Shown here in pieces: positions 12,203 through 50,453 of a DNA stretch of 64,000 nucleotides. The notes beneath the pieces were generated by a model. That model saw only the letters and a program-made list of their open reading frames with translations. It was not told the origin of the DNA and ran no database searches. How positions within the stretch are numbered: position 1 is the stretch's first letter; each line of letters opens with the position of its first letter. The DNA is from Nitrosopumilus sp. (GTDB lineage: Archaea; Thermoproteota; Nitrososphaeria; Nitrososphaerales; Nitrosopumilaceae): contig OZ241981.1 in the NCBI GenBank assembly GCA_965204345.1, positions 256,001 through 320,000 on the forward strand, written 5' to 3'. The translations under genes were made by a program, and so were the position numbers.

Positions 12203-12267
12203 AAGACATAGCAGATAATCGCTCTCCTTAAACCTTCATCAATATCTAAATAGAGAAAATCTAAAAA

Positions 12268-12330
12268 GGAACTGGTAAGTTAGCGGGGCATGACTACAAA
12301 TCTTATTCCTGGAAAGCCTCGGGGCTTTTA
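12268..12330 (+). repeat. Element 1 left TIR (63 bp)
   Basis: Reverse complement equals 16121-16154 joined to 49604-49632. Confidence 0.93.
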
Positions 12331-12431
12331 TTTATCTGACTTTATGTGATGGTTCTGTTAACTTATTGAGTATTTGATATCCGATCTTCTTCGTGTTAAC
12401 TGTCGGTACCTAGAAATAAAAAAACTGGTTT

Positions 12432-13376
12432 TTAAAGACTTTTCAGCTTTCTAAGCAAATCCAAATCTGGTGATTTTTCTTGTGCATCATTGATTATTTT
12501 GTATATTTTTTCAAAACGGATTTTTGATTCGGGTTTTTTTACTGGTATATTGTTATGTTTGCAGAACTCATACATTTCTTCAAATACTTTGTTTCTTTTA
12601 AACAATATAACATCAATGCCTTTTTTCTTGAATTGGTTGACCATCATACCTGTAAGATCATCAACTAAAAATAATTGAATGTCTCGTGCAAGTCCTTCAT
12701 CTGCTACTTCTGGATTGCCTATTCCCAATAATTTTAATTCTATTTTATAGAGTCTTTTATCACGATCAATCAATATTCCATCTGTTTCTCTTACGGAGTC
12801 TATTTTTTTCTGGATATCCTTAGTTATTAGTATGAAATTATCCTCTGGTATTTCTAAATGTTTGAATAACGTAAGTAAAATTGAATTTTCTGTTTTCTTT
12901 CCAACCTCACTCCAAGCTCCACCCCTAATGGATGATTTCATTGATGAGACTGCATTTATGAAAATCATGCTTTCAGTTTCGTCTAATCGTATTGATTCGT
13001 TTTTGCATCTTATGTCAATTGAAATTAAATATTTTGTCTCTATTGTTTGTAAAAGTGTTTCAAATGCATTAACATTGTCTTTTCCAACTTCGAAGCAAAT
13101 TCGCTTTGATGTTGAACCACTCATGTTAAGTATTGTCTTTTGATTCAGTCCAGCTAGCCATGCTATTTTTTTCTTATCTTCTGATTTCTCATAATGAGCA
13201 TTTATGATTTGTACCCAGTTTTTGCCCTGTTTTTTATATTCGAAAATATTCTCTATCAATTCATCTACCTGTTTTACGAATCTTTCATTTATTATGGCAA
13301 GAATGTATTTTCTATGGTCTTGAGCTGTAAAAACAGAATGAATTATTTTACTTAGCAGATTGGTGCTATATGTCAT
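12432..13376 (-). CDS. Type II restriction endonuclease, CfrBI-like
   Basis: IRGGAWSEVGKKTE, RETDG, IELKLLGIGNPEVAD motifs resemble the CfrBI family; next to an N4C MTase. Confidence 0.75.
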   Translation of the reverse strand: MTYSTNLLSKIIHSVFTAQDHRKYILAIINERFVKQVDELIENIFEYKKQGKNWVQIINAHYEKSEDKKKIAWLAGLNQKTILNMSGSTSKRICFEVGKDNVNAFETLLQTIETKYLISIDIRCKNESIRLDETESMIFINAVSSMKSSIRGGAWSEVGKKTENSILLTLFKHLEIPEDNFILITKDIQKKIDSVRETDGILIDRDKRLYKIELKLLGIGNPEVADEGLARDIQLFLVDDLTGMMVNQFKKKGIDVILFKRNKVFEEMYEFCKHNNIPVKKPESKIRFEKIYKIINDAQEKSPDLDLLRKLKSL

Positions 13377-13450: not shown

Positions 13451-14755
13451 TTAATGGATGAACCTGGGTTTTTTTTTGACATGATCCAGAAAATCAAACA
13501 TATATGATGTGACACTGTCATGTATGTTTTTCAAAGAATATGCACAATTGCTATCTTTTTGCAAGATCACTATTTGCTCATCATTGATATTTCCAATCTT
13601 GGAATTTGTGTATTTGGTTGTAGGATCTATATTTCTGAAAAATGTTTTTTTGTGTACAAATCCCCCTACATTAGCATATTTTTCAAATAATTTGTACGGT
13701 TCTATTTTTTCAAACTCTATGGTAGATGTGCCTAAAATAACAGCACAGTAACGATTTTTATCAAGAGCATGATTCATTTTAAATAAAAATTTGAGCATAT
13801 CGCCTAGATACTCACTTAATAATCTAAATCTATTATGGACAAATTTTGAATGACTACCTATTTCATGTTTCCTCAGGTCTTTAAAGTTGTATTCCAAGAA
13901 GTGCATGTTGTACATATGGGTTCTGTGATAATCCAATGCGTTAACATATGGAGGTGAAGTTATCACCAAATCCACACTTCCTTTTTTGAGATATAATTCG
14001 TTGATGTCTTTGTTAAACAATGTTACAGAAGGCCTGTTGTCAATACTATAATTCATGTTAAGAATTTCTTCGTGGATAAATGCTATTTTTTTCTTAAAAA
14101 CTTCCAATATGTTGACTGATTTTTTTGAATTAAACATATACCATAATGTAGAACTGAGTGTCAATCTACACAAATTGGATATTTTAGAATCATTTTGACA
14201 ATTAATGAAATTTTTTATTAATAGAATATGTTTGATATTTTGATTAGAAAGTAAACTGGTGATCTTTCTTTTTGGCAAAATACTAATTTCCTCATTTATC
14301 ATTTTCTTTGTAATTTTAATCTCAAAATCGTCAAATCTTTGCAAGGCTCTTGAAAACTTGATTGGTGATATTGAAGTTGTTTTCATTTTTGATATCAATA
14401 TTGACAGAGGATTCAAATCAGAGCCAATAGAATCACGATTATTCATAAAGGATTCTAGAATTGTAGTACCGCTACCGCAAAATGGGTCTAGCACAATATC
14501 ATTTTTTTTACTTAGATTTTTAATAAGACTACTGGCTATTTGTGGGATGAATCTGGCAGGGTATGGATGTATCTTATGCGTAAGATAAGTCTTTGAATTT
14601 GTAAAATTCCAGTCGATTTTATTCATATCAAAAAATGGTTTTTCAGAAATTAAATCATCCTGTCTTTGTATTGATATATTTTTTTGTACCAAGTTTGGTT
14701 TTGTCTTATTGTCTCTACATTTAACGTTTAATTTGGTCAAATTGATCTCACTCAT
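13451..14755 (-). CDS. DNA cytosine-N4 methyltransferase (C-terminus shifted at an A9 run)
   Basis: HPYPARF, VLDPFCGSGT, VITSPPY. Confidence 0.9.
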   Translation of the reverse strand: MSEINLTKLNVKCRDNKTKPNLVQKNISIQRQDDLISEKPFFDMNKIDWNFTNSKTYLTHKIHPYPARFIPQIASSLIKNLSKKNDIVLDPFCGSGTTILESFMNNRDSIGSDLNPLSILISKMKTTSISPIKFSRALQRFDDFEIKITKKMINEEISILPKRKITSLLSNQNIKHILLIKNFINCQNDSKISNLCRLTLSSTLWYMFNSKKSVNILEVFKKKIAFIHEEILNMNYSIDNRPSVTLFNKDINELYLKKGSVDLVITSPPYVNALDYHRTHMYNMHFLEYNFKDLRKHEIGSHSKFVHNRFRLLSEYLGDMLKFLFKMNHALDKNRYCAVILGTSTIEFEKIEPYKLFEKYANVGGFVHKKTFFRNIDPTTKYTNSKIGNINDEQIVILQKDSNCAYSLKNIHDSVTSYMFDFLDHVKKKPRFIH

Positions 14756-15014: not shown

Positions 15015-16148
15015 ATGAATGAAAGAGAAATTAGAGGAAAACAAATTGCAGAAAAACAGGATCAGATTAGACGACTAAATGAAACTCATTATGAGGTTAA
15101 CAGTCAGTCAAGAAGAATAACACATGACGTTGTTGGCACTGAATTAGGCTGGTCTTGCAGCTGCGAGGATCATAATTTTAGAAAAATCTGCTGTAAGCAC
15201 ATTCATGCAGTAGAGATCTCACTTAATCTTCATCAAAAGGTAAAAGATGATGTTGTAATTTCAGAAGTGGTAATTGACTGCTGCAAGTATTGCAAATCAC
15301 AAAATATTGTAAAACGAGGCATACGAAAAAACAAGAGTGGTAATATCCAAATATTCTGCTGTAAGGACTGCACACGCAAATTCTCAATTAATCTAGGTTT
15401 TGAGGGAATGAGGGCAACGCCTGACCAGATAACAATGGCTATGAATTTGCGTTTTAATGGTGAATCCTCACGCAAAGTGGCACATTCATTAACCCTTACA
15501 GGTGTTAAAATATCTCATATCACTGTCCAAAACTGGAACAAGAAATATGTCAATCTCATGGAAAAGTATCTTGATAAGATAACCCCACAAGTAGGTGAAC
15601 AGTGGAGAACAGATGAGTTATACCTGAAAATCAAGGGCGATAAAAAATACCTCTTTGCAATGCTTGATTCAGAAACCAGATTTTGGTTATCTCAAATGGT
15701 GTCAGAACACAAGGGACATGATGATGTATCTCCAATGTTTGTACAAGCTAAAAAGAAAGCAAAGAAAGTTCCTAAAACTCTAATTTCAGACGGAGCTGCA
15801 AACTTTCATCATGCTTGGAAAAAACAGTACAAAGCTAAAAACTATCTTCACAAAAAAACAGAACACCGCAGGCATATACACTTGTCAGGGGATATGAACA
15901 ACAACCAGATGGAATCCTTCAACTCAAACACATTACGAATGAGAGAGAAAGTAACAAGAGGAATCAAAAAAGATGATTCTGCAATACTCAAAGGTATGCA
16001 GATTCACCACAACTACATAAGACCACATCAAGGACTAGATGGAGATACACCAGCAGATAGATCAGGGATTAAAATTATGGGTGATAACAAGTGGAAAACT
16101 ATCATTCAAAATGCATCTTCTAAAAGCCCCGAGGCTTTCCAGGAATAA
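15015..16148 (+). CDS. IS6-like DDE transposase with SWIM-like and Zn-ribbon N-terminal domains
   Basis: CSCEDH...CKHIH, CKYC...CKDC, WRTDE, ISDG, NNQMES, RPHQGL...TPA; stop codon lies inside the right TIR. Confidence 0.9.
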   Translation: MNEREIRGKQIAEKQDQIRRLNETHYEVNSQSRRITHDVVGTELGWSCSCEDHNFRKICCKHIHAVEISLNLHQKVKDDVVISEVVIDCCKYCKSQNIVKRGIRKNKSGNIQIFCCKDCTRKFSINLGFEGMRATPDQITMAMNLRFNGESSRKVAHSLTLTGVKISHITVQNWNKKYVNLMEKYLDKITPQVGEQWRTDELYLKIKGDKKYLFAMLDSETRFWLSQMVSEHKGHDDVSPMFVQAKKKAKKVPKTLISDGAANFHHAWKKQYKAKNYLHKKTEHRRHIHLSGDMNNNQMESFNSNTLRMREKVTRGIKKDDSAILKGMQIHHNYIRPHQGLDGDTPADRSGIKIMGDNKWKTIIQNASSKSPEAFQE

Positions 16149-16358
16149 GATTTGTACACTGTTCAATCTTAGGGGCTTTTCAACTGGGTGTTAAATTAGG
16201 GTCTTTTTGTGTTAAGTTAGGTGCTTTTCGTATTGAAAAAATAAGTAACTGTTCAAAACTCGGGACATGGAATCAATCTTCTAATCCAAAAGATGACCTA
16301 ATGCATTCTGCGTCATCATTGTAATCTTGGAGAGGGCATGTACTAAATTTACAAAAAA

Positions 16359-17447
16359 TCAGATTCGATCTAAGATTTCTTGTGTATATTTACCATCAAA
16401 TTTTTCGACATTGTCATGCATGCCACAATCAAACACATAGTCACAATATTTCAGGCATTTTCGTGGGTTGCCATTACTTTTTTCATATATTACCTTGAAA
16501 AATTCAGGACTGATAAAAGGCCAAGATTTGTGAGGCAATGTTTCTGCATGATTAGTTCTATTTTCTTTAATTCTGTCCACAAGCAGTATTTCAGTATTTT
16601 TCTCTGAGAGAGGAAGTAACTCAATTTTATTGATTTTTGGATTCACTCTATCCATCCAAGGAATTATTCCACCTCCACCTTTTCTTGCCTCCATGTTTGT
16701 GAGAAATTCCCAACATCCCGGAGTCATGGCAATAATAAAAATTGTTTTTGCAAGAGAGTCAGGATTGTTTCCATATTCATCATAAATCTCCTTAAAGAAA
16801 TACAGTATTGCGTCAATCTGTTTTTGATTGTAAACAGTAACGACATACTCAAACTCATCAATTAGTAAATAGATATTTTCTATTTCTGCATGTTTTAGGA
16901 ATTTGAGAAAGTTATGAAATACAAGCAAGGCATCCCTACTTGTAAGTAGATTTGTTGAGATTCCAAGATCTCTTTTGTCTTTATCAGGCAAAGACTGTCC
17001 ACAAAGCCAATCATATGCAATACGCTTCTGATCCCGTATGCCATTGATGATTTTTTGGAAATTTGCATCAGCTAATCTTTGATCCAAGTTGGAGGATTTG
17101 CTGACAATCTCACACATTTTTGGGTATCCAATGTTTCTAAATGCACGTGTTACGATTGAGTGACCAATCTTTGTTTCGGCTTCACCCTCCACCAAACGCA
17201 TAGTAATAACAAGATTTTTTTGGTTATCTTTGATTTTTTTATCGCCAAGTCTTTCTCTGATTTTTTTAAGAAGTAAAGTTTTGCCAATGCCATAATCTCC
17301 AATAATCAAAAAGGTTCTACTGCCAACAAATTTCTTATCGATGAAATCATCAAGACGCCTCATCTCATCTTTTCTCCCTACAACAGGATAGTCCTGACGT
17401 AAATCATCAAAAAGACCATGTTTTAGATGAAAATCTTCAGCGGTCAT
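16359..17447 (-). CDS. AAA+/P-loop ATPase
   Basis: VGRKDE, Walker A GDYGIGKT, Walker B LLIDEFE, SNGNPR lid. Confidence 0.85.
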   Translation of the reverse strand: MTAEDFHLKHGLFDDLRQDYPVVGRKDEMRRLDDFIDKKFVGSRTFLIIGDYGIGKTLLLKKIRERLGDKKIKDNQKNLVITMRLVEGEAETKIGHSIVTRAFRNIGYPKMCEIVSKSSNLDQRLADANFQKIINGIRDQKRIAYDWLCGQSLPDKDKRDLGISTNLLTSRDALLVFHNFLKFLKHAEIENIYLLIDEFEYVVTVYNQKQIDAILYFFKEIYDEYGNNPDSLAKTIFIIAMTPGCWEFLTNMEARKGGGGIIPWMDRVNPKINKIELLPLSEKNTEILLVDRIKENRTNHAETLPHKSWPFISPEFFKVIYEKSNGNPRKCLKYCDYVFDCGMHDNVEKFDGKYTQEILDRI

Positions 17448-18286
17448 TTTTCAGAAATTGTCAAAAAATGGTAATAAGTCTTGTTATGAAATATCCCGCC
17501 AACTTGTCGCACACCAGTCTCAGACAGGATAATTTTTTTGTCAGGCTTGTCAGTCATTGTTTTGATCAAATATTCTTTAAAATCCAGCGGTGTAAACCCC
17601 TTGTTCTTTAGTTTGGATGAAACCAGAGATTTGATCGAAGGAATTGATACATAGGTTCCCTTTTCTTTTTTGATTTTTTCGTATTCAGCATACAGTATTT
17701 TTTTAAATTCTTTTGAAGAAACTAGTTGAGGCTTGCTTTCTAATGCTTCTACCATGTTTGAATTAAAATGGTAGATTGGAGGTGAATAGGTCAGCAACTC
17801 ACAGTATGCAAGAAATTGCAACCATCTACGCAATTTGTCATCAGTTTTTTTGACTAGTGTGTCTTGTCTACCTAATTCTTCGACGAGGTCGTTATACTTC
17901 AAGTCTTTTTTTGTTTTTTTAAAAATGTCAAGAATGTGACATTTTTCATTATCTAATTGCAAAAGTATTCTAGATAATTCTTTTTTGTACATTTCAAGAC
18001 TATCGGAGATAGAATAAAGATACTTACCTTCTGGCGTCAATGTCACGTTTTGATTTTCACCTTGCAGTAACCGTAGTTTTCTGAGCGAATGCGTAACTCT
18101 TACTCTGAACGGATCAAGATGAGGGGATGCAATTTGTTTGCTGGTTTTTTTATAATGTTTAAGTGCCAATTGTTCTATCTCTTTGCGATTTCCTACATTT
18201 TCTTCAATTATTTTTAGCATTGGAAGTACATCAGTAGGAGAAATTTTTAGTGCTAGAAGAATGATTTTCATGAAGATGGCCAACAA
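17444..18286 (-). CDS. Hypothetical protein, probable tandem winged-helix domains
   Basis: LRKLRLL...VTLTPEGK and LRRWLQFLAYCELL wHTH-like segments. Confidence 0.6.
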   Translation of the reverse strand: MLAIFMKIILLALKISPTDVLPMLKIIEENVGNRKEIEQLALKHYKKTSKQIASPHLDPFRVRVTHSLRKLRLLQGENQNVTLTPEGKYLYSISDSLEMYKKELSRILLQLDNEKCHILDIFKKTKKDLKYNDLVEELGRQDTLVKKTDDKLRRWLQFLAYCELLTYSPPIYHFNSNMVEALESKPQLVSSKEFKKILYAEYEKIKKEKGTYVSIPSIKSLVSSKLKNKGFTPLDFKEYLIKTMTDKPDKKIILSETGVRQVGGIFHNKTYYHFLTISEK

Positions 18287-19239
18287 TGATTAAAGTACGA
18301 ACATGATCTGCATTTTTCATCAGAATCGGGCTTTCCTGGATCCTTCTTGGTTTTCATCTGTTCCAGTAAATTTTGACGTCTTAAAAGAAATGCTTTCCTA
18401 TATCTGTCTTCAATCAAGATGACTTCAGAATTAAAGAAATGTGGAACATTACGTTTGTTTGCAAATTCAGGTGTTACAATCATTCCCAAGTTCATTGATT
18501 TGCCATATATTTTTTCATAAATTAATGCGTACCCACCCAATGTGTTTAGATATTCGTCTTTCCATGGAGGGGACTTGACATCAATGATAATTTTGTTATC
18601 AAACAGGAAATCAGGTTGCGCACTCTTAGTTATTCCAAAAGAGGATACAGTAAAGGAAGGTTTTGAAGCAAATGGAAATAAGTTCATAGACATTAAACTG
18701 ATATTGATATCTTTAGTTATTGATATTTTATAATCCAGCAATGCACTTGCTATTTGTGTCTCATAACGTAATGTTTGCTTTAACAGTAAAATGAAATCAT
18801 CAATTACAGGTTGGCTTGGAGAGTTTATTATTTTTGCCTTCTTGTCTTTGATTAACTTCTCTGCATAATCCATAAAATTACTACTATGAGAATCAAAATC
18901 AGTCATAATGTCGGCATTTTTTAAATTAACCGTATTGAGATAATTATGTAATTTTTTTATAAACTTGTCATACACCTTATCCAATATTTGTCCAGACAGC
19001 ATTTCCCATGTTTGTTCATGTTTTGCCTTAGGGACATACTTGTGCAGATATGCATAACGATCAGTAGGACAATATTTAATTGGAATCTGATTAAAAGGCA
19101 CAGACAAAGCAGATTCTCTAAAATCAGCTGGAACATCATTTTTTGGTCTATATCCACGAATGTGGATTTTATCCTCTGCTATTTTTTCTAATTCCTGGAT
19201 TTTGTTGGAATTAAGATTGTCTAAAACAAGCTTCATCAT
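18268..19239 (-). CDS. Cas4a/Csa1-like Fe-S PD-(D/E)xK nuclease
   Basis: YCPTDRYAYL, PDFLF...IDVKS, LGGYALIYE, C-terminal CxxCxxxxxC; no CRISPR array or cas1 in the window. Confidence 0.75.
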   Translation of the reverse strand: MMKLVLDNLNSNKIQELEKIAEDKIHIRGYRPKNDVPADFRESALSVPFNQIPIKYCPTDRYAYLHKYVPKAKHEQTWEMLSGQILDKVYDKFIKKLHNYLNTVNLKNADIMTDFDSHSSNFMDYAEKLIKDKKAKIINSPSQPVIDDFILLLKQTLRYETQIASALLDYKISITKDINISLMSMNLFPFASKPSFTVSSFGITKSAQPDFLFDNKIIIDVKSPPWKDEYLNTLGGYALIYEKIYGKSMNLGMIVTPEFANKRNVPHFFNSEVILIEDRYRKAFLLRRQNLLEQMKTKKDPGKPDSDEKCRSCSYFNHCWPSS

Positions 19240-20447
19240 GGTTTTTTCAATATCACAATGTGTTCATTATAAATCCTGTTCGTAATATTTGCTCTTTTTA
19301 TGCCTAACCTATGAAATTTGATTTCGTCTAACATTTCTAATTTAAAATCAAATCCAGATTCTTCTCCCATACGGCGTAAAAATACATTTAATGGCACTCG
19401 TTGCTCCAATACTTTACTATTACCCACAATAATAGCACAATGTCCTCCGGATTTTAGCACTTTGTAAAATTTGTTCATTATTTCATGTAAATCATTAAAG
19501 TACTGACTAGTTTTAAGCCCATAAGAAGTAGATTTGGAATAAATTTTATCTATGAAATTATCAACCTCTTTGATTTGTGTATACATCAATTCCTTATCCA
19601 TACCAGAACTCAGTTCACCATGAATAGATTTTCGTGCTAATTTTCGATACTCCTCTACTGAACCATTATTTAACCAAAAATTTTCCAGTTTGGTACTACG
19701 AAAATATTCCATTGCAGAAAGATAGGGGGGTGATGTGACAATCATATCTACCCTTCGTCGTAAATTAATTTTTTTGACATCATCGCCAATGATCTGAGCT
19801 TTTGACTTTATATCAGAAATTTCATTTATACGATCAATATTGAAATCCAGTTGTAGTAGAAATTCGTTTAGTACATTAGGTGGGTGTGGTTGTTTTGCTA
19901 ATCTTGGCAGGATATCTCGCGGCTCTGCATTTGATACTTTTTTCACAATTGCAGAAAAACAAATCAAAAGAAAATCACGAATGTCATTATCAGTGTCAAC
20001 ATTATCTATCACATGTTTTATTTTTGCTAAATCATTTTGTGTCTTTTTAGTGAACCAAAAGTCTCGATTTTGAAATTGTGGAACAGTTACTTTTTTAGAT
20101 TTTTTTATATCCAAATAACACTGATGAGATTTTTTTTTAAGTTCGTCAACATCCAGTGGAGTTATTTTTACTTTGGAAATCAATCTAGCAATAGGATTCA
20201 ATTCTATACCAAGTGCATCACGCTGTAATAATATAGATTCCAACAACGTAGTTCCAGAACCACAGAATCCGTCCAAGATTGTATCATGTTCCTTGGAAAA
20301 TTTACTGATAAGATAATTTGGAATATGCGGAATTAATTTTGCAGGATATTTGTGAATGTGATGAGTTGCTCTGGTTCTTTTTGAAAGTTCAGGCATAAGT
20401 TCTTTAAAGTTTATTGGAATCGATTGTTTTTGTAAAAGTATAGACAT
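19236..20447 (-). CDS. DNA cytosine-N4 methyltransferase
   Basis: HKYPAKL, ILDGFCGSGT, IVTSPPY. Confidence 0.9.
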   Translation of the reverse strand: MSILLQKQSIPINFKELMPELSKRTRATHHIHKYPAKLIPHIPNYLISKFSKEHDTILDGFCGSGTTLLESILLQRDALGIELNPIARLISKVKITPLDVDELKKKSHQCYLDIKKSKKVTVPQFQNRDFWFTKKTQNDLAKIKHVIDNVDTDNDIRDFLLICFSAIVKKVSNAEPRDILPRLAKQPHPPNVLNEFLLQLDFNIDRINEISDIKSKAQIIGDDVKKINLRRRVDMIVTSPPYLSAMEYFRSTKLENFWLNNGSVEEYRKLARKSIHGELSSGMDKELMYTQIKEVDNFIDKIYSKSTSYGLKTSQYFNDLHEIMNKFYKVLKSGGHCAIIVGNSKVLEQRVPLNVFLRRMGEESGFDFKLEMLDEIKFHRLGIKRANITNRIYNEHIVILKKP

Positions 20448-20999
20448 AATTTATCTCTCAAATTATTTTAAACTCTGAGTTGTGATCAATAATTGACTTT
20501 ATGATCGAATTTCTGGTCGTATTCTGTTTCTTTTGAATTTCTTTTTTGGGAATCTCTACAATAATTTTTTGACCAATAAAAATAGCAGGCATGCCGACTA
20601 TGCTACTTGTATCATTATTTTTTGTGACATGTTTTTGATAGTTAAAATGTGGATTCATTTTGTAATTCAAGTTTGTAAACCATATTTGTATTTAAGATGA
20701 CTTTGACACAAGATTATCATCAAATCACGGTTTTGCATCAGAACCAAGTTTGATGATACAGATACTTTGCACATCCCAATAATATCCAAAAACAACTTTC
20801 TGGTTCGTTTCTAATTGAAGATAAAGAGATAGTATCTGTTTTGTGTAGTTTATGTAAACAGTTCTCCCCTTGGACATACAACAAGTTTGATGAGGAGGAT
20901 CCAATTGCAGTTACAATATGGAATTTTATTTATTGACCGTGACACTTTAAACATGATATTGTGATTATTATAAATTCAGCCTAGCGATTAAAATAAAAT

Positions 21000-28138: not shown

Positions 28139-28253
28139 ATTTCGTCCAAAGAGGGCTGTATATCAAAATTTGCATCCTGAGAATCTGTTTTTGGTCATAT
28201 ATGAATGATCAAGCTTTATTTTTTGAGATGTAATAACAATATTCATATCTGTT

Positions 28254-30027: not shown

Positions 30028-30033
30028 GAATCA

Positions 30034-35527: not shown

Positions 35528-35529
35528 AA

Positions 35530-37848: not shown

Positions 37849-38092
37849 TCATAATCGTAGTTATTTATCCTTATTGCGGGGGGGGGTTATGCTACTTGAT
37901 GAGTGTGATATTTACACTTTAATTTTAGAGACTTTTCAACAGGGGGTTAAATAGGGACTTTATGTGTGAATTTTTTGTGCGTATTTTTCATATTTATTCT
38001 CAAAAATTAATTTGGCATCTCCTTTGGCTTTGAAAAACAACAAAGCGTTTGATAGCACTTCTAATATAGTATGCCAAAAAACCAACAAACCG

Positions 38093-39352: not shown

Positions 39353-39471
39353 AACAGATGTGAATATTGTACATTACGCCTGAAAAATCAAAACTTGACC
39401 ATTCACATATGACTAAAAACAGATTCTCAGGATGCAAATTTTGATATACTGTCCCTTTTGGACGAGGTGTA

Positions 39472-39981
39472 ATGGCTAACTTACTTGCCCTGCTGCTGGC
39501 AATCTTTGCAGTTATGAGTATCGGACACGCATATGCACAGACATCTGAACTGCTTGTACCTTTGCCAGATAGCGAGCTAGAATCACTTGATGTTTTTGAG
39601 GGGTATAACTTTGAATCAAAGATGGTAACAATAAATACACAAGTTTTCTCATCAGAAAATCTAAGCATTACGATATTTGATGAATCAACAACTTTCACAA
39701 AAGACTTTGTGGAGCATTATGAAGATGGTAATTACCTATGGATAGGTTCCAATGATAATGAAGAAACTGCAATGTTTGAAATAAGCGGTACAAACGCTGT
39801 GGGAATAATAGACACATTAAACAAAACATTCCAGGTGTTTCCTGTAGAGGCCACAACACATGAAGTGTATCTCATTGATCAGTCCCAGTTTCCACCAGAC
39901 ACTGTTGTACCACCTGGTGCAAGCGGCGAGCAATCCTTTGACAGAGATGAGACATATCACTTAATAGCACTTCTAATATAG
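39472..39981 (+). pseudogene. Truncated N-terminal copy of the giant M12B-like gene
   Basis: Matches the first ~158 aa of 41374 and 23093, then joins the upstream sequence of the SPYEQ gene. Confidence 0.75.
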
Positions 39982-40004
39982 TATGCCAAAAAACCAACAA
40001 ACCA

Positions 40005-41258: not shown

Positions 41259-41373
41259 CCCAGATATGAATATTATCATTACGCCTCAAAAAATAAAGCT
41301 TGATCATCCATGTATGACCAAAAACAGATTCTCAGGATGCAAATTTTGATATACTATTCCTTTTGGACAAGGT

Positions 41374-44300
41374 ATGATGGCTAATTTGTTTGCTCTACTG
41401 CTAACAATATTTGTAGTTATGAGTATCGGACACGCATATGCACAGACATCTGAACTGTTTGTACCCTTGCCAGATAGTGAGCTAGAATCACTTGATGTTT
41501 TTGAGGGCTATAATTTTGAATCAAAGATGGTAGCAATAGATACGCAAATTTTCTCATCAGAACGTATAAGCATTACAATATTTGATGAATCGACAACCTT
41601 CACAAAAGACTCTGTGGAGCATTATGAAGATGGCAACTATCTGTGGAAGGGTTCCAATAATGATGAAGAGACTGCAATGTTTGAAATAAGTGGTACAAAG
41701 GCAGTGGGAATAATAGACACATTAAACAAAACATTCCAAGTGTTTCCTGTAGAGGCCACAACACATGAAGTGTATCTCATTGATCAGTCCCAGTTTCCAC
41801 CAGATACTGTTGTACCGCCAGGTGCAAGTGGTGAGCAATCCTTTGACATGGATAAAATAAATCACTTGAAGGAATCATACATTGGAGGATTTGATTACGA
41901 TGATGTATTTACCGAAAAACTGGTCATAGATGTATTCATAGCCGCAACTGAGGATGCAGTTAGCGAATTTCATAACTCAATACGTCTCATCGCATCCAAT
42001 GCAATAGATGACACAAATCGTACGTATAGACAAAACAATATTCCAGTTGAACTCAACCTCGTAGATCGTACTAGGATAGATGGATATGTCGAGACTGATG
42101 ACTTGGAAGATGATCTTGATAATTTTCAAACCTCTGATGAGCGTGAATTCAAAACAGCTCGTGCGTTAATAGAACGAGAAGAGGCAGATATTGCAATAAT
42201 GTTTGTTGATAGTATCATTAATGTTGATGATGATGATGTTGATGGTAATGATATTGGTAAAGATTTGAATAACGAATGTTCTAAAACTGCACAACAGCTT
42301 GTTAGAAGTACACGTACAGCATTTGCAGTAGTGGACGTAAAGTGTCTTGCTGTATACTCTGCAACTAATGCAATAGGGCGTATGCACGGGGCAGGATATG
42401 ACATCGACATGGAAAGAAACCCAAATTTCAGTAAGGGTCATGGATATTATGATGCAGGCATTTTCCAAAGAACAATAATGGCATCAAGTGGTGGCAACTG
42501 TGATAGTCCAATTACTCAGGCAAAAGAATCATGTGATAGAAAAAGAGTATGGTCGGATCCATTCAGAAATTTCTTTGGTACGCTCAATAGGGCAGGTGAT
42601 GATGTCAGCTGGAATGCCAGAGTAATATTTGCAACAGCACCACACATTGCATCACTGCGCGGACCGGCACAGACATACGATGACACAAGACCCACAGGCA
42701 ATGTGACACTGCCTCAAAACATACCGCAGAGTGGAAGTCTGGATATTTCTGCAACGTTTAATGAGATTATAAATCCAAATTTTCCGCTTGATGTTACAAT
42801 CACAAACGGCTATACGTCAACTACCGGAACGATGACCCGTACATCAGATACGACCTTTGAATACTCGCATCTGCTTGATGGGGAAGATGGTACATTTGCA
42901 ATATTATTTTCAAATGCACGCGATATATTTGGAAATCCTGTTATCAGGACCCCTACTTCAGGAGGCATGGTAACACTTGATGCAAATAGCATACCTTATA
43001 GGCCAATATCAGGACCAACCACTACCAATTTTGAGGAGAATTTTCAAGGAGGACTGTCAAAGTGGAGGATTACAGGTGATGGCAGAGCATCAACAATTAC
43101 TCCTGATGAAGTCATATTCCCTGCAACCAATACTAGGAACAAAGTATTGGCATCTGATCATTGCAACGGATTATGCATCTTAACGATACCTACCCAGTTT
43201 GATACACGTCAACCACTTACAATATCCTTTGACAGATTTGTAGACAGACTCGTTAGACATGACAATGGTCTTTATGTCCAATATTCTATAAATGATGGAA
43301 CAACATGGACTACGCTTGCCGAATACACCCGCAACAACGACGAGGACACAGACGAATGGGAGCGCGAATACCTGTCTCTGGTAATACCTCAAAGCAGTGC
43401 AAAACTGCGTCTGCTAATGGACCTCTCTGAAAATAAAGGCTTTGTAGAAGTAGACAACTTTAAGGTATACAAGCCTACGCCTGCCGAGCCGGACATCATT
43501 CTCAGACCCCATCTTGGCGCGGAGAGAACAAGCATATCATTTAGTTTGATGGAGAGAATTCCAGTTAGGCTGGGTGCCTCTGACTTTGAGATCAGCCATG
43601 GAACAATTACTTCATTGTCTCATCGCGCAAACTCTGCTGCAGTAACGATGCGTGTAGCAGACATTCCATATGATACACAAATTACTGTGACATATACGGG
43701 ACCAAGCATTCTGATAAATAGAGCATATCTGAATTCGGGTACCAGCGGAGTTACAAACATCGTACCAACGCCTGCTACTATGCCCGAAATAACTGCACCA
43801 TCAGATAAGACAATAGAGGCAACAGGTGCACTTACACGTCTTGCCGCAGAACAGCTTGGAACACCGGCGGTAACAGGTAACAGACTCTTGCCAGTAACAA
43901 ACAATGCACCAAGAGATTTCCCACTGGGTGATACGACAGTAAGGTGGACTGTAACTGATGCCTCACGAAATTCTGCAACAGATACACAGATTATAACCAT
44001 ACGTGATACCACTCCGCCTGCAATACGGGATGTTACAGACCTGACATTAGAGACTAACACCGGTTCCATTGCAGCAAACTATGCTGTACCTGTTGCAACA
44101 GATACCGTAGACACATCAGTTGACGTATCATGTAATGTTGCAGTTGGAGCAGACCTACCGATTGGAGAGCACATTATAACGTGTACGGCAACAGACGACT
44201 CTAAAAATACGTCTCAGACCATCTTTAGGATAACTGTAATATTTTCTGAACCCATCCCTGACATTCCACCACCTGCAAAGAACGATGACAACATGTGGCA

Positions 44301-45792
44301 TACTGAATCATACGACTTGTCATCTGAATATCTCATAGAGGGTCTACAGATACGCATAACGACACGCAGTAGCGCATCTGATGAAGTTGCAATGATAGAT
44401 AACATGTCGATTCAGAACTTGCCAGCTCGACCGCCTACAAAGAATGATGACAGCACATGGCATACTGAATCATACGACTTGCCATCTGAATATCTCATAG
44501 ATGGTCTACAGGTGCGCATAACAGCACGCAGTAGCACGTCTGATGAAATTACAATGATAGACAACATGTCGATTCAGAATTCGGCACCTCAGCCGCCCCC
44601 CGTCACACCATCGGCATACTCCATATACGTAGCTGACACTGATGATCGTGAGGTACTTGCATATTCTGAGGACGGCACTTTTCTTGACGAGATAGTTACA
44701 CGTAGGTCCGGAGGCCTAGACAAGGTGTGGAGTGTCGCATTTGGGCCTGACGGAGACCTGTATGCATCTGACAACACCCACAGCAAGATACGCAAGTATG
44801 ACGGTGCCACAGGTTCCCCACTGTCATCAAGTTCCGGATGGGCATCAACTATCGGAAAGCCCTACGGAATTACATGGAATGGCAACACACTGTATGTTGC
44901 AACATCTACCGGGATCGAAAGATTCTCCGCATCAGGCACATCACTTGGATACTTTGGTGATGCATTTCGCACATCATCTAGCGAACTGTTAACCCCGTAT
45001 GACTTGGCTTTTTGTTCTGATGGACGCATGTATGCTGCAGACAGAAGTGCAGGCAAGATATTTTACTATAGGGCAACAGACGGCGCCTATCTTGGCGAGA
45101 TATCCAATACGGGTCCTCTAATCACATCCCGCGCAGCAGGAATAACATGCGGACCTGCCATTTATGGCTCTGGAGACAGCCTGTATCAGAGCGGTGATGA
45201 TGGAGGACGCATCAACGAGATAAGCTTATCTAGACACTCACTGGTTAGAGAAATCACGACATCAGTAGATGAGCCATATGGCATGGATATGGACAATGCC
45301 GGCAACCTGTATGTAGCAAACCACGATGACGATAACATACTAAAGATTTCCTCAAACAGAGTAATCTCTGTATTTGCATCAGGATTTGATGATCCTCACG
45401 ATGTCACTGTCGGACCAGAGTATAGTGCCGGTGCGGGAGGAGGCTCTGCAGGCGGCTTGGCAGAAGGGGAAGACACCGGAAAGGAATCAAATGACTCGCC
45501 TGAGATTCAACTGATTTACAACGGTACAACAGTATACGAGCCCGTATCCATATCATCACAAGTCACATTTGAGGTGCAGGCAACTGACACTGAGGGAGAT
45601 GCAATAACCATTGGCATCATACCTGATGGAATTCCAGAAGACGCAATATCGATAACTGACAACGGAGACGGCACTGCTGCAATATCAATCAGCCCTGAAA
45701 ACATACCTGTTGCAGGAACGCACGTCTTTTGGGTTACAGTATCTGATGCGGATAATTATGACAGGGAACCATACGCGGTAATCATACCCTGA
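41374..45792 (+). CDS. Giant secreted protein: inactive M12B-like domain, HYR, NHL-like beta-propeller, cadherin-like tail
   Basis: N-terminal ~880 aa near-identical to 23093-28138; VAFGPDGDLYASD and PYGMDMDNAGNLYVAN repeats. Confidence 0.82.
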   Translation: MMANLFALLLTIFVVMSIGHAYAQTSELFVPLPDSELESLDVFEGYNFESKMVAIDTQIFSSERISITIFDESTTFTKDSVEHYEDGNYLWKGSNNDEETAMFEISGTKAVGIIDTLNKTFQVFPVEATTHEVYLIDQSQFPPDTVVPPGASGEQSFDMDKINHLKESYIGGFDYDDVFTEKLVIDVFIAATEDAVSEFHNSIRLIASNAIDDTNRTYRQNNIPVELNLVDRTRIDGYVETDDLEDDLDNFQTSDEREFKTARALIEREEADIAIMFVDSIINVDDDDVDGNDIGKDLNNECSKTAQQLVRSTRTAFAVVDVKCLAVYSATNAIGRMHGAGYDIDMERNPNFSKGHGYYDAGIFQRTIMASSGGNCDSPITQAKESCDRKRVWSDPFRNFFGTLNRAGDDVSWNARVIFATAPHIASLRGPAQTYDDTRPTGNVTLPQNIPQSGSLDISATFNEIINPNFPLDVTITNGYTSTTGTMTRTSDTTFEYSHLLDGEDGTFAILFSNARDIFGNPVIRTPTSGGMVTLDANSIPYRPISGPTTTNFEENFQGGLSKWRITGDGRASTITPDEVIFPATNTRNKVLASDHCNGLCILTIPTQFDTRQPLTISFDRFVDRLVRHDNGLYVQYSINDGTTWTTLAEYTRNNDEDTDEWEREYLSLVIPQSSAKLRLLMDLSENKGFVEVDNFKVYKPTPAEPDIILRPHLGAERTSISFSLMERIPVRLGASDFEISHGTITSLSHRANSAAVTMRVADIPYDTQITVTYTGPSILINRAYLNSGTSGVTNIVPTPATMPEITAPSDKTIEATGALTRLAAEQLGTPAVTGNRLLPVTNNAPRDFPLGDTTVRWTVTDASRNSATDTQIITIRDTTPPAIRDVTDLTLETNTGSIAANYAVPVATDTVDTSVDVSCNVAVGADLPIGEHIITCTATDDSKNTSQTIFRITVIFSEPIPDIPPPAKNDDNMWHTESYDLSSEYLIEGLQIRITTRSSASDEVAMIDNMSIQNLPARPPTKNDDSTWHTESYDLPSEYLIDGLQVRITARSSTSDEITMIDNMSIQNSAPQPPPVTPSAYSIYVADTDDREVLAYSEDGTFLDEIVTRRSGGLDKVWSVAFGPDGDLYASDNTHSKIRKYDGATGSPLSSSSGWASTIGKPYGITWNGNTLYVATSTGIERFSASGTSLGYFGDAFRTSSSELLTPYDLAFCSDGRMYAADRSAGKIFYYRATDGAYLGEISNTGPLITSRAAGITCGPAIYGSGDSLYQSGDDGGRINEISLSRHSLVREITTSVDEPYGMDMDNAGNLYVANHDDDNILKISSNRVISVFASGFDDPHDVTVGPEYSAGAGGGSAGGLAEGEDTGKESNDSPEIQLIYNGTTVYEPVSISSQVTFEVQATDTEGDAITIGIIPDGIPEDAISITDNGDGTAAISISPENIPVAGTHVFWVTVSDADNYDREPYAVIIP

Positions 45793-46205
45793 GAAAGAAG
45801 ATTCTGATAGCTGCTGTTGCTACAATAATCATTATTTCTGCAGATAAGATTAACCCAGCTAAATGACCAGATAAGAGCTGATAGCTGCTGTTGCTACAAT
45901 ATCATTATTTCTGCAGGTACTGTCCTTGTCTTCCAATATTATCCTACACTGCCACAAGCTATGATTTTGACTTTGTATTCAAATTAAACTCCGCAATGGC
46001 AGAGAACTCTTTTGTTCGTCTAAGCCTAGATAAAGCCATATATTCTCATGGAGAGCCAATCACGATAACTGTACTCGACAAGTCACCATACACGTTAACA
46101 CAAAACGGTTCCAATAAGGGGATCTATGTATTTGATGTATCTGGACATTACTCTGGTAATTGTGGTTACTATCATGGTTTGAGTCGTGAGATGATAAGTT
46201 CCTAG
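45790..46205 (+). pseudogene. Disrupted secreted-protein gene with duplicated signal-peptide segment
   Basis: About 40-bp direct repeat at 45804-45843 and 45878-45916 (LIAAVATIIIISA); downstream LSLDKAIYSHGEPITITV. Confidence 0.5.
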
Positions 46206-46407
46206 ATCCCCACACATCTATTTCCCCTATGCACCAACCACCTCCTGAATGTGGAATTATCAGAATAAGTCATAACATGATGTAAATATAGGGGAATCAA
46301 TGCGACAGGGATTACCTCTTGAACATACTAGTCTATCTGTCTATGCAACCATAAATCCTCCCCCAATCAATAATGATAAATAACCTCAATTATGACTGTC
46401 GTCTATA

Positions 46408-48690
46408 TTGAATTTAAAAACAACATTGCCGATCATAATTTTCTCACTAGTATTTTTACTTGTATATCCCCCAGAGTCCGCATCCCAGACTGACGATGAC
46501 AAACAGTTTGCAGTGCCAGGCAACCTTATCCCAGATGACAATACACTAGGCCCTGTTGCAGATGTGGATATACCAGCCAAGTTTGATGGCGGTTTTTATG
46601 ATAAAATTCAGAGTATCATATCTGATGTACCCCAAGATGGCGACTATGGCGTACATGACGGTACACGATACTATGATGTCCTAATTATAGTGGCCAGAAG
46701 TGATGACAAAAATGCAGAAGAGACAGCACGCGAGAACAAGGATATAATATTACAGAAGCTTGATCTTCTTGGCGCACGCAACATAGCGGCAGCAGAGTCA
46801 CTCTCATTTGTAACTGCATCCATCCCGGTTGCAGACGTTCCGGGACTCTCACTTTATGACGAGGTTTATGCCATGGGGGATGGTGAAACCCCAGTAACTC
46901 TAGAGATTGATACGACTAGGGGAACCGTACATGCAACTCCAAACGAAATTCGTACCGCAGCAGCTGGCACCAATCTCGATGGCAGTGGAGTTGTTGTGGC
47001 AATAATTGACAGAGGCATCAACCACAACATTGCATTTAACAACAGAATCATTGACCGTGTAGAGTGCGATGATACGTGTGAGCCTGCAACTGCTGCTAGT
47101 GTGATCGGCGTTAATAGCACTAATGATCTTTCTCCAGATTTTGCATCCCATGGTACACATATAGCCCAAGTTCTTGCCGCATCAGGACTTCCACATCATA
47201 ACGGCATTGCCCCAGGTGTAAAACTTTTGGATGCCTCAATTACCAGGCACACTGTAGATCAGGATAACAATCGTGCCTTCATTAGTGCAAATAGAAATGA
47301 TGTGGTACATGCCCTTGATTGGTCTCTCAAAAAAGGAGCCGACATAGCAACCACGAGTTTTGGTTTTGGAATCTGCAATGAAAATTCTGCAAACACAACC
47401 AACCTCATCACAAATGAGGCAGTTGACAAGGGAATGATTGTGGTATCATCTGCAGGAAACAGAGGCATAATTTATGGAGCACCAAACCAGCCAGTTTATC
47501 AATCTATAACTCATCCCGGATGCGGACACAATGAAATTACCGTAGGCGGAATAAATGATCGTGGTGAAACAATAGAAAGGGCAAGCTTTGCAAGCAGGGG
47601 TCCAGCACCCGGAACAGTCCTGCTAAAGCCCGAGATAGTTGCACCTGCGATACGTCTTCAGACACTGGACAATGTTGCAGATGCTGACACTTTTAGTCCT
47701 CGGTCCGGAACCAGCCTTGCCAATCCCCAGGTAAGTGCAACTGCTGCCCTGTTGCTACAGGCAGAACCTGATCTGACCCCAGTTGAGATAAAGGCCGCAC
47801 TTCTTCTTGGGGCTGACTGGCAGGGTCCAATCCCTTGCACGTCTGCACAGTATGAGAAAAACAATCCCAACGACAATTGTTCTTATGCCAGACAGCCATC
47901 TAACACTGCTGAGAGAAACAATTCTGGATCCCTTCAAATACTAAACAATGTGGGCTTTGGCATACTAAACACTGCAGAGTCACTCAGGTATGCTCAAAGT
48001 TCATCATCATCCCATATAATATCAGACAAACTTGTGTCAAATACTGACACAAAGCAGTACCGGTTTACCGTACAGGACACATCAAAACCGGTAAAAGTGA
48101 TACTGTCATGGCTGGTTCATCCGCATGGCAGCATCGCCGGACAGTTGACTCGTACTCACATAGCAGTTCCTATTACAAATTTGGATTTTACAATAACGTC
48201 TCCGGATAATACCACAATACGGGCAACATCAGACCACCAGACAAACGAGTTTGCAGTGTTTACTCCTACCAGCACCGGAACGTACACCGTAACAGTTAGC
48301 GGCTCAAACATTGATGACATAGACGAGCCGGTACAAGACTTTGCACTGGCAAGCACCAACCCTCTTACACTCACATCAACTACAATATCTGAGGATTTTG
48401 GAGATCTCGACAACTGGACTCAGAGCGGAGATTCCAACTGGACAATTCGCACACCATCTACTATAGTACCTGACAGCCAGTCAGGCAACACAGTAGCTTA
48501 TGCCTCAGACTGTGATAGAACATGTACAATCACGCTATCTCCTGTGGATTTGTCCTCCAGACAGTCAGGCCATCTCACATTTGACAGGTTTGTTGGCTCC
48601 GGACTGGATGCCGGTGAATATCTCAAAGTCGAGCTGTATGATGGCCGCACATGGAATACAATATTTGACTGGCAGGCATCAGCAGACTAG
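46408..48690 (+). CDS. Secreted subtilase (S8), inverted paralog of 35530-37848
   Basis: AIIDRG, SHGT, SSAGN, KPEIVAP, SGTSLANP. Confidence 0.88.
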   Translation: MNLKTTLPIIIFSLVFLLVYPPESASQTDDDKQFAVPGNLIPDDNTLGPVADVDIPAKFDGGFYDKIQSIISDVPQDGDYGVHDGTRYYDVLIIVARSDDKNAEETARENKDIILQKLDLLGARNIAAAESLSFVTASIPVADVPGLSLYDEVYAMGDGETPVTLEIDTTRGTVHATPNEIRTAAAGTNLDGSGVVVAIIDRGINHNIAFNNRIIDRVECDDTCEPATAASVIGVNSTNDLSPDFASHGTHIAQVLAASGLPHHNGIAPGVKLLDASITRHTVDQDNNRAFISANRNDVVHALDWSLKKGADIATTSFGFGICNENSANTTNLITNEAVDKGMIVVSSAGNRGIIYGAPNQPVYQSITHPGCGHNEITVGGINDRGETIERASFASRGPAPGTVLLKPEIVAPAIRLQTLDNVADADTFSPRSGTSLANPQVSATAALLLQAEPDLTPVEIKAALLLGADWQGPIPCTSAQYEKNNPNDNCSYARQPSNTAERNNSGSLQILNNVGFGILNTAESLRYAQSSSSSHIISDKLVSNTDTKQYRFTVQDTSKPVKVILSWLVHPHGSIAGQLTRTHIAVPITNLDFTITSPDNTTIRATSDHQTNEFAVFTPTSTGTYTVTVSGSNIDDIDEPVQDFALASTNPLTLTSTTISEDFGDLDNWTQSGDSNWTIRTPSTIVPDSQSGNTVAYASDCDRTCTITLSPVDLSSRQSGHLTFDRFVGSGLDAGEYLKVELYDGRTWNTIFDWQASAD

Positions 48691-49066
48691 TTGCTGTCAT
48701 CGTCCCTTACCGAACAGTTTTTGCACTCACTCTTGAAAAAGAGGGGTCAAAAACCTATCTTCAAAGAGGTAGAATCATAATTTTCAGGATTTTGTGATCT
48801 TGATTTTTACTAAATCACTTTTGGATCTTAACTAATTTTTTCAAAATAAACTAATTCTAATTGACAACTATCCCACAAAGGATGATCGTCAATCATATTG
48901 TTTCATATGTTTCCTGACCGCCAAATTCAATACTATCAATATGTAAAAAACCAAATGTTACAGTATTGCCTTCAACATCCACTCCTAAAACATCATAATC
49001 CAAACTATATGAACCTGAATTCATACTTGATACACAATAAACAATAATATTTCTGCAAGAAAATAA

Positions 49067-49231
49067 TTACTGCTCAATGGATAGCGTTCCATCACATTGA
49101 CATAACTTGCATTTCCCATTAACAATTTGTGATTTTCTGTCTGCTGTGATTATGTGGTTTCCCAGTGAATGTCCACATTCAGAACAGACACCTTTCTGTT
49201 CCACGCCAATTCCAACTCGTATAGTTTCCAT
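49067..49231 (-). CDS. 54-aa Cys/His Zn-finger microprotein (not in ORF track)
   Basis: METIRVGIGVEQKGVCSECGHSLGNH...GKCKLCQCDG...; purine-rich SD-like sequence upstream. Confidence 0.65.
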   Translation of the reverse strand: METIRVGIGVEQKGVCSECGHSLGNHIITADRKSQIVNGKCKLCQCDGTLSIEQ

Positions 49232-50453
49232 ATCATCCCCTTGCTGTTAAATTTCTGATGCCATGTCTTGGATTATTGCTTGGATAGTTGTTTGTTGGTG
49301 CATATGATAATGTCATACCAGGGGCCAAAAAGCGGATTTGACAATCGCTGAACTACACTTTGGGATTTTTTGCTTACTGGACATCTAAGAAAATCATCTC
49401 TTGCAGTTTGCTGCTAAATTCCGGTGATCAGATCATCAAAATTTACCAACCCTGAATTAAACATTAGGGGCAAATGTCCAGAGTTTTGAACAGTGTGAAT
49501 TTTTTTGAATCTGTCATCACCCTAACTTAACACCCATCACTCGAATTGAACAGTCTGTTTAAAACAGGCAAATGACACTAAGATTGAACAGTGTAAAGAT
49601 TTGTAGTCATGCCCCGCTAACTTACCAGTTCCTCTAAAAAATAATCTTTAAATCATACTGCAATAATGAGATTTTTTTTTTGAATTTGAAATTTCTCTTT
49701 GGTCTCTCTCTCTGTCTTTAGCATTTTGTTTGCAATACCCGTTGGATCTAGATGAATAAGAAACAACTGGCAGGTCCCACTTTCCCTGATTCTAGTTGTT
49801 CTGCTAGTCACACTTGCTGTGTATTATTTGCCTGTTGCTGATTGGATGAGAAGGAGCAGGTATCAGGCACCATGATACCAAGGGTTTAGTCTGGTTTGGA
49901 CTGTCAACTGCGTTTTTAAGCCAGGAAAACAAAGAGATTGTCTGGAACAGAGAGACGTCCATCTATACAGCTGGAACAGACTCTGAAACTCGTAGAGCTG
50001 TTACAAAGGATATGCACCAGATACACAGATGGGAAGACATTACCAACTGCTACTGCTACTGCTACTACTGTTGCTTCCAAGACCGGAACGTTTGCAGATA
50101 TTTTAGATGAATGGTTCTATATCGACTGTACCTGCCAAAACGCTAGCTGGGATTCTTGATGTCCTAGCAGAGTGCATCTTTAGTTATGAGGTGTGCAAGC
50201 ACTTTGAGAGTACAACCCACTTCAAAGACGCACGCAAGTCACACAGTCCGAAGACGGCTCGTATCCTAAAAAAAAGTCCTCATCTCAAAACACCCTGCAA
50301 GGATAACATCTGATGCAAGAGATGAACTTGGGGTTGCACAGGATTCTACAAAGTCAAGAAGGCACAAAAAGACCCTCAAAAAATCAGAAAGGATCTGAAC
50401 CGAATTCTTGACCACCGCTCCTAATCTTTTATGGTGTAAAAGTTACAAAGGAC

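Follow-up and report, generated by a model that had tools for sequence, protein, structure and literature searches.

Cargo transposons stacked inside the terminal repeat of an archaeal IS6-like transposon and their possible targeting to resident transposon ends

We describe a stack of three transposons in a 64,000-nucleotide stretch (hereafter the window) of a Nitrosopumilus sp. genome, contig OZ241981.1, positions 256,001 to 320,000. The outermost element, E1, is a transposon with a restriction-modification (R-M) system and an IS6-like transposase, T1; one of its terminal inverted repeats (TIRs) is interrupted by two larger cargo transposons, E2 and E3, which have transposases T2 and T3 of the same kind and lie in tandem. 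The genome of the window is denoted G000 and related genomes are given by similar numbers.

Anatomy of the stacked elements

The right TIR of E1 is the transposase-proximal one and it is in two pieces: it breaks at the 8-mer AAGATTTG, stops at 16154 and picks up again at 49604 (Table 1). The outer 29-mer and the inner 34-mer (the 8-mer and 26 nt) of the intact left TIR recur once each, on the opposite strand and with 0 mismatches, so taking out E2, E3 and two copies of the 8-mer gives a perfect 63-bp right TIR. The stop codon of T1 (16146-16148) lies inside this TIR, where its last two bases are also the first two of the 8-mer; the open reading frame (ORF) of T1 is intact. E1 is present in one copy in G000, and its left repeat carries the same 8-mer without an insert. 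An earlier sequence-only reading of this DNA had proposed a split 63-bp TIR, a target-site duplication (TSD) around the whole unit, two inserted elements and three copies of one 8-mer; this anatomy was confirmed base by base at the four junctions.

The ends of E2 and E3 have their first 18 nt, TACACTGTTCAATCTTAG, in common. This 18-mer occurs 5 times in the window, as compared to 0.10 occurrences expected from shuffled sequences, and 4 of the 5 are the ends of E2 and E3. When compared as inverted arms, the ends of E2 are 95% identical over 95 nt and those of E3 94% identical over 155 nt. T2 and T3 are 81% identical (T1 and T2 only 31%), and the subterminal sequences of the two elements also differ, which supports the conclusion that E2 and E3 are two independent insertions of differing elements, as the sequence-only reading had it.

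The tandem might also be an assembly artefact, or one element might have been duplicated in tandem between the 8-mers, its copies later diverging or being converted. In favour of this, the three 8-mers do not differ, and the Logan contigs of 4 sequencing runs placed on 15500-33000 are short pieces that stop at the repeats, none of those listed bridging 16150 or 31890; part of the E2/E3 junction stretch is contained in 13 of 18 listed runs. However, E2 and E3 differ throughout, in their cargo as well as in the features named above, both end types are present elsewhere in the genome, the window is part of a 2.04-Mb contig of G000, and the same architecture is found in independent assemblies. We therefore regard an artefact or a duplication as very improbable.

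Table 1. Positions of the three transposons and their parts in the window.
Feature	Position	Strand	Remarks
E1 unit, IS6-like R-M transposon	12268-49632		37,365 bp including the inserts; itself 3.9 kb
Left copy of the E1 TSD, TCTAAAAA	12260-12267		read directly; identical 8-mer at 49633-49640
Left, transposase-distal E1 TIR, 63 bp	12268-12330	+	read directly
Terminus motif copy A, left E1 TIR	~12268-12291		
Unoccupied 8-mer CAAATCTT, left E1 TIR	12297-12304		
Terminus-like copy B, left E1 TIR	~12305-12328		
CfrBI-like restriction endonuclease, E1 cargo	12432-13376	-	PF09516, E 2.3e-58
N6/N4 DNA methyltransferase, E1 cargo	13451-14755	-	PF01555, E 2e-17
E1 transposase T1, 377 aa	15015-16148	+	IS6-like DDE, SWIM/zinc N-terminus
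Split right E1 TIR, inner part (terminus-like copy B)	16122-16146	-	
AAGATTTG copy 1	16147-16154		read directly
E2, IS6-like cargo transposon, 15,734 bp	16155-31888	+	arms of ~90 nt at 16155-16244 and 31799-31888
E2 cargo, four co-oriented genes	16359-20447	-	BrxC/D-like ATPase, AAA-associated C-terminal domain protein, Csa1/Cas4-like nuclease, DNA methyltransferase
E2 cargo, surface-type genes	21000-29678	-	two HYR/fn3 surface-type proteins of 698 and 1681 aa, one protein of 474 aa
E2 transposase T2, 450 aa	30268-31620	+	
AAGATTTG copy 2	31889-31896		sole bases separating the right end of E2 from the left end of E3
E3, IS6-like cargo transposon, 17,699 bp	31897-49595	+	arms of ~145 nt at 31897-32041 and 49451-49595
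E3 transposase T3, 450 aa	33907-35259	+	
Internal partial copy, inner part of the E3 right end	35471-35537	-	marks a 3.6-kb core before ~14 kb of cargo
E3 cargo	35530-48690		two inverted subtilase genes, two paralogous unknown genes, 1472-aa HYR/NHL protein
AAGATTTG copy 3	49596-49603		read directly
Split right E1 TIR, outer 29 nt (terminus motif copy A)	49604-49632	-	
Right copy of the E1 TSD, TCTAAAAA	49633-49640		read directly

A few features of the cargo and of the ends should be mentioned here. The block 16359-20447, just inside the left end of E2, is a candidate defence cassette; no CRISPR array was found near it, and the 474-aa protein of the E2 cargo matched no family. The HYR-protein cargo of the two elements contains a 2.8-kb stretch that is 96% identical and inverted (25486-28307 in E2, 41205-44026 in E3), further blocks of 0.3-1 kb are shared at 88-95% identity, and these stretches point to recent exchange between the stacked elements. 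The internal copy at 35471-35537 is partial and 82% identical to positions 49451-49507 of the E3 right end, which suggests that E3 acquired its 14-kb cargo through the use of a more distant right end or through recombination of two E3-type elements. The fifth exact copy of the 18-mer in the window (3279-3296) comes directly after the inner part of a different type of end; the arrangement is repeated at C1:673508, i.e. some ends have a pair of directly repeated terminus motifs spaced by about 68 nt.

Recurrence of the insertion position and the 8-bp spacing

The uninterrupted core of the E1 TIR is present in 5 of 401 genomes of the family, and in the genus, a search of 151 genomes gave an outer TIR followed by any 8-mer and an E2/E3 terminus in 3, namely G000, G291 and G450. 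E1-type outer termini were collected from 106 genomes that are at least 90% complete, with additional follow-ups. Of the 23 distinct ones collected from the genus, 16 are intact, 3 continue otherwise, and 4 (G000, G450 and two in G291) are occupied at the identical base by an E2/E3-type end. The occupied TIRs differ from one another at many positions of the outer half. At G450:C8 a clean 5.9-kb insertion with CAAATCTT on both sides splits a TIR of the transposase-proximal type at the same base; its transposase is 87% identical to T2 and its cargo is a type III-like R-M pair (the sequence recurs at the start of another contig and was counted once). The same 5.9-kb element type is found in a transposase-distal-type TIR in G177, a fifth case in which the inner junction is canonical and the outer junction is short of about 18 bp. 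The two outer junctions in G291 (CGAATTTT and CGAATTTC) have different element ends, and both may descend from one event. An E2/E3-type end is also located at the homologous place of another TIR subfamily (E1c-type) at G450:C5. The inserts at this position are different elements and lie in both orientations. The hot spot is genuine, since it is beyond chance that a single base in genomes of 2 Mb should receive five or more events.

One candidate was rejected as a transposon: a 12.6-kb stretch in G291 that has no transposase and contains ordinary metabolic genes. It is maybe a pair of solo ends around host DNA, and for these reasons only its junction was counted.

Most ends lie elsewhere. In G000 the 18-nt terminus has 32 matches with at most 3 mismatches, most of them with flanks unlike E1. 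The 14-nt core has 31 forward and 26 reverse matches, out of which only the ends of E2 and E3 have matching 8-mer pairs within 60 kb; the remaining E2/E3-type ends are solo, degraded or rearranged. Unpaired ends are compatible with movement by cointegrates (copy-in) and a targeted conservative mode, and we did not count them as evidence. A clean 4.4-kb relative in G177, with the duplication AAAAAGTG, lies at an unrelated site away from any terminus, about 215 bp inside another element. A search for an empty E1 site via its flanks in relatives of the genus gave none; the left flank was found at 70-77% identity in 6 of 8 genomes and the right flank at useful length in 0 of 8.

A third intact T2-type transposase in G000 (C1:332175-333800, 96% identical to T2) is located about 12 kb past the right edge of the window; the proximal end of its element abuts the subterminal sequence of an E3-type end, and a search for the left or partner end found none. 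At C1:1086706 in the same genome, a nested end has an 8-mer that directly adjoins an E1-like site inside an E3-type end, a reading that was made post hoc.

The sequence-only reading had treated E2 and E3 as hunters of one site, i.e. their transposase would recognise the E1 TIR sequence itself. In a strict form of this view, copies at other places would be relics of later rearrangement. The recurrent base in the TIRs described above speaks for this, and so does the fact that the sole E2/E3-type elements with intact duplications in G000 are the two inside the E1 TIR. On the other hand, the clean G177 copy with AAAAAGTG sits at another site, both orientations are used, the occupied TIRs vary in their outer half, and the same 8-bp abutment is found beside unrelated termini (E1b-type, and E2/E3-type in G359). 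A strict TIR hunter is thus unlikely. What stands of the proposed sequence-specific recognition is the base that recurs in G291 (two), G450 and G177; it does not extend to the approximately 32 of 51 flanks without end context. Likewise, one-sided recognition is plausible, even though the data point to the inner half of the TIR, with its terminus-like repeat, and not to the TIR as a whole.

Why this particular base is used can be approached through a table of 57 termini. TIRs of the E1 superfamily hold two direct copies of a terminus motif, an outer copy A and an inner copy B, whose 3' parts co-vary modestly among subfamilies. The hot 8-mer of E1-type TIRs is flush with copy B, just outside its start, and the inserts are positioned as would be expected if copy B were a resident terminus with the 8-mer as its flank. 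The spacing is sharp. Of the 51 distinct flanks outside E2/E3-type termini, 8 have a terminus-like core facing the incoming end at a spacer of 8 and 2 have one at 9; spacers of 13, 27 and 37 occur once each, and there are zero cases at all other offsets from -4 to 44. Cores in the opposite orientation are scattered (0-2 per offset) and show no peak. Across all sequence collected, facing termini are separated by spacers of 7 (1), 8 (4), 9 (1), 15 (1), 17 (1) and 36 (1). If spacers of 0-30 are allowed, tandem E2/E3-type ends occur in 2 of 89 genomes (G000, and G359 with TAAAATTA), and an E1b-type terminus followed by an E2/E3-type end gives 2 matches in 1 of 71 genomes (G291); the spacer is 8 in all of these. 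In G291, an element of the E1 type at 5446-10353 is flanked by the duplication GTCGCATG, the right copy of which abuts the terminus of another element.

Miniature elements composed of two facing termini were seen as well. G375 has 60-bp E1-type pairs (L021:8938-8997 and 10047-10106) and G291 a 78-bp E2/E3-type pair (C1:1718461-1718538, L129); some of these miniature elements lie 8 bp from another terminus.

The junction of E2 and E3 can also be read as two inverted 12-nt arms flanking 8 bp, i.e. as a lox-like site at which site-specific recombination takes place with the 8-mer as crossover region. A metagenomic repeat family offers a parallel. A scan of metagenome contigs for two facing termini 0-30 nt apart gave 44 matches at 41 loci with 36 distinct junctions, the spacer being 8 in 35 and 11 in 1. 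In this family (L131-L171, e.g. L144:2590-2737) the inverted 12-nt arms are identical to the core of the E2/E3 terminus, and the nearly constant spacer of the 12-8-12 layout is CACGGAAG or a one-base variant. Some copies form arrays 116-132 bp apart, with a hairpin on one side that shows compensatory stem changes, and the GC content is 44.7%. A tblastn search of 310 kb found no IS6-like transposase, and the family could be arrays of miniature inverted-repeat transposable elements or a recombination site. We did not count the 35 spacer-8 junctions as support since they belong to one conserved palindromic family without an IS6-like transposase. In the locus itself, no recombinase family was detected among 20 ORFs scanned in and around the elements; some ORFs, such as 32128-33332, are unassigned. 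Each element has an intact IS6-like DDE transposase, the inverted arms extend over 95-155 nt, and the 8-mers vary from locus to locus (AAGATTTG, TAAAATTA, AAAAAGTG, GTCGCATG), while the metagenomic family looks unrelated. We find a lox-like site hardly credible. A collection of genome contigs, which apparently lacks the present family, gave 10 matches to an outer TIR, 8-mer and terminus junction, all in unrelated bacterial contigs and at chance level.

Proposed insertion beside resident ends

We propose that E2/E3-type elements insert beside resident transposon ends, either real ones or mimics. We put the probability of this reading, which is based on sequence comparison, at roughly 0.6. Insertion beside ends is preferred over recognition of one TIR sequence because the 8-bp abutment is also found at other IS6-like termini and unrelated sites are used as well. 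The 8-mer would be hot because it lies directly outside the terminus-like copy B of the E1 TIR, and the frequent use of the E1 TIR would be due to an inner repeat that passes for an end. The sequence-only reading was thus right as to independent, targeted and stackable insertion, and too narrow in making the elements site-specific TIR hunters.

The sequence of events can be imagined as follows. A complex of the incoming transposase and its element's ends would capture target DNA bearing a resident terminus or a look-alike; a transposase, either that of the incoming element or a relative of it, is perhaps bound to the resident terminus. This bound transposase would guide the insertion, with copy B serving as a decoy end. 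Strand transfer would take place at the boundary of the terminus and 8 bp further out and would therefore leave exactly one duplicated 8-mer between the new element and the resident terminus. E2 and E3 arrived by two separate transposition events at the same 8 bp. After the first insertion every copy of the 8-mer would abut a genuine E2/E3 terminus, therefore the site would be regenerated, even improved, and a second element could stack in tandem.

There are several points that weigh against this proposal. About 32 of the 51 E2/E3-type flanks have no IS-end (insertion sequence end) context, and the clean G177 element with AAAAAGTG is not end-adjacent. The terminus-like core was defined after the cases had been seen, so that the comparison of offsets is the only control, and the 8 flanks with spacer 8 represent 7 junctions from 4 related genomes that are not fully independent. 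The E1 TIR and the E2/E3 ends are only weakly alike (11-52 of 1000 shuffles reach the score of their local alignment), and the co-variation of copies A and B is modest, 6.73 as compared to 5.82 of 10. The E1c-type junction at G450:C5 lies about 3 nt inside the predicted boundary of copy B. At abutments beside true termini the order of arrival is unreadable. Finally, there is a weak local consensus that favours A at positions -7 to -5 and T at -3 and -2; the hot 8-mer fits this consensus, which could act independently.

This last point can be developed into an explanation of its own, in which no protein guides the targeting and the insertions follow a weak local consensus, an 8-mer in bendable DNA that is first A-rich and then T-rich. 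In a compact genome, selection would in addition retain insertions at harmless sites, and the TIR spacer would survive as such a site repeatedly. The composition of 59 flanks is indeed skewed: 26-30 of them have A at the positions from -7 to -5, 29 have T at -3 and 36 have T at -2, in a genome where A and T are about 0.31 each; unrelated flanks also end in GAATCTT or GAATTTT. However, such 7-8-mers must be very frequent in a 2-Mb AT-rich genome, so that several independent events at a single base cannot be put down to the consensus alone. Selection, on its part, cannot account for the single-nucleotide register or for the sharp peak at spacer 8 beside other termini. We consider this explanation improbable, and insertion beside resident ends is the reading used in the comparisons below.

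Transposase family, related systems and significance

T1, T2 and T3 are all encoded on the + strand and match DDE_Tnp_IS240 and IS6 profiles. They score 51-56 bits with Pfam DDE_Tnp_IS240 (cut-off 27), and the best NCBIfam model is IS6 (NF033587), which is matched over almost the whole 202-position profile with 101-106 bits, under the cut-off of 125. All three have extra N-terminal zinc-type and C-terminal regions. The accessible part of one source argues that archaeal members do not belong to the IS6 family proper (PMC6807381). The 8-bp duplications are those of the IS6/IS26 family: TCTAAAAA for E1, AAGATTTG for E2 and E3, CAAATCTT in G450, AAAAAGTG in G177 and GTCGCATG in G291. The TIRs of that family, as given in the accessible text, are about 14 bp long, start with GG and have G at position 7 (PMC6807381). 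E1 has the GG and the G at position 7, but its TIR is 63 bp long and has two copies of the motif; the E2/E3 ends start with TA and keep the G at position 7, and their arms of 95-155 nt put them outside the short-TIR description. IS6/IS26 members are described as simple insertion sequences with a single transposase gene, one passenger-carrying exception being listed in the accessible part of the review (PMC7986276). The elements of the window measure 3.9 kb (E1), 15.7 kb (E2) and 17.7 kb (E3) and have 2 to about 8 cargo genes. E1, E2 and E3 are accordingly predicted to be DDE transposons of a distant archaeal IS6-like group that has long multi-motif ends, cargo and 8-bp duplications.

Relatives of 3.2-5.9 kb bear R-M genes. 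An E1-type element of 3.2 kb in G291 (L017:8573-11741) carries a BsaWI-like endonuclease and a methyltransferase, and an E2-type element of 5.9 kb in G450 (L043:221-6102) a ResIII helicase-nuclease and a methyltransferase; a full-length relative of T1 in G291 is 83% identical. The sequence-only reading was correct in calling E1 an R-M transposon, since E1 has its CfrBI-like endonuclease and methyltransferase and a relative likewise carries such genes. Carrying R-M genes seems to be usual in this transposon group.

It is useful to compare this arrangement with known systems in which an element lands in or next to another. IS4321 and IS5075 of the IS110 family have a DEDD-type transposase and insert at one position in the TIRs of the Tn21 family, in one orientation and without duplication. 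The elements described here share the position inside a TIR, but they have IS240-type, IS6-like DDE transposases, make 8-bp duplications, occur in both orientations at the hot spot and have many copies outside TIRs. Tn7 uses TnsABC with a target selector and makes 5-bp duplications. The present elements have one DDE transposase each and 8-bp duplications, and the only TniB-like signal is one weak match (E 0.0036) in a cargo ATPase. Casposons, elements with tyrosine recombinases, and Tn7 at attTn7 likewise form tandem stacks by re-using a site that survives integration; the difference is that they use Cas1, tyrosine recombinases or TnsABCD at a host gene or tRNA, while the target here is the end of another transposon. 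In Thaumarchaeota, tandem casposons and proviruses have been described, and in the accessible part of that survey the IS-like transposons are elements of 1-2 genes and tandem integration is reported only for casposons and proviruses (PMC6563490).

The closest parallels in terms of targeting are found among other DDE elements. IS30 has a dual target specificity, i.e. it inserts into a hot-spot sequence or next to its own inverted repeats, according to the accessible text (PMC9333248). The likeness is that a DDE element uses either a loose hot spot or the edge of a resident inverted repeat, which yields abutted ends; the spacer peak at 8, equal to the length of the duplication, and the many sites away from inverted repeats correspond to this way of working. 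IS30 differs in belonging to another family and in its copy-out/paste-in pathway, 2-bp duplications and targeting of its own inverted repeats. Here, the elements are IS6-like, the spacer is 8 bp, the target can be the resident end of a relative whose transposase is only 31% identical, or a look-alike within an element, and what results is stable cargo transposons that lie in tandem or are nested.

In the case of IS26, a resident target copy raises the frequency about 100-fold and directs the reaction to the IS boundary, and a synapsis of the ends of two copies in one transpososome has been proposed as a model, itself untested, in the accessible part of a 2021 review (PMC7986276). The transposase family is related and a resident copy is the target in both cases. 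The IS26 reaction differs in that neither a duplication nor an IS copy is newly made and two matching copies of IS26 are needed, whereas each arrival described here has its own 8-bp duplication and the partners differ. IS911, a member of the IS3 family, inserts next to sequences that resemble its own end, with 3-bp duplications and by another pathway; this is known from plasmid assays and not from natural cargo stacks. It has been named as a parallel in the accessible part of the same review (PMC7986276).

In searches on Nitrosopumilus and IS6, and in the accessible parts of PMC6563490 and PMC13343696, we found no description of such elements or of such targeting; the supplements may list IS copies. 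The 2026 census of archaeal insertion sequences does not mention nesting or passengers in its accessible part (PMC13343696). What is new is the combination of a distant archaeal IS6-like family, a duplicative outcome with an 8-bp spacer, a foreign end or look-alike as the target, the size and the cargo of the elements, and the natural stacks.

The genomes described here bear on the mechanism by which IS6/IS26-type transposases reach resident copies. They provide a natural record of the synapsis idea with a readable footprint, namely an 8-mer that is duplicated and directly adjoins a terminus, either a resident one or a mimic. We tentatively suggest, at somewhat less than even odds, that archaeal IS6-like transposases use the termini of resident relatives, or look-alikes within long multi-site TIRs, as beacons for duplicative insertion. 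This would be a natural heterologous counterpart of the targeted reaction of IS26 and would create a self-regenerating landing pad, on which defence, R-M and surface cargo would accrete in nested and tandem stacks that could move together on the outermost element. The findings extend the IS6-like group to cargo transposons of 4-18 kb with long multi-site ends, and they indicate how a streamlined archaeal genome can gather genes for defence, R-M and surface proteins into one growing locus while its host genes remain undamaged.

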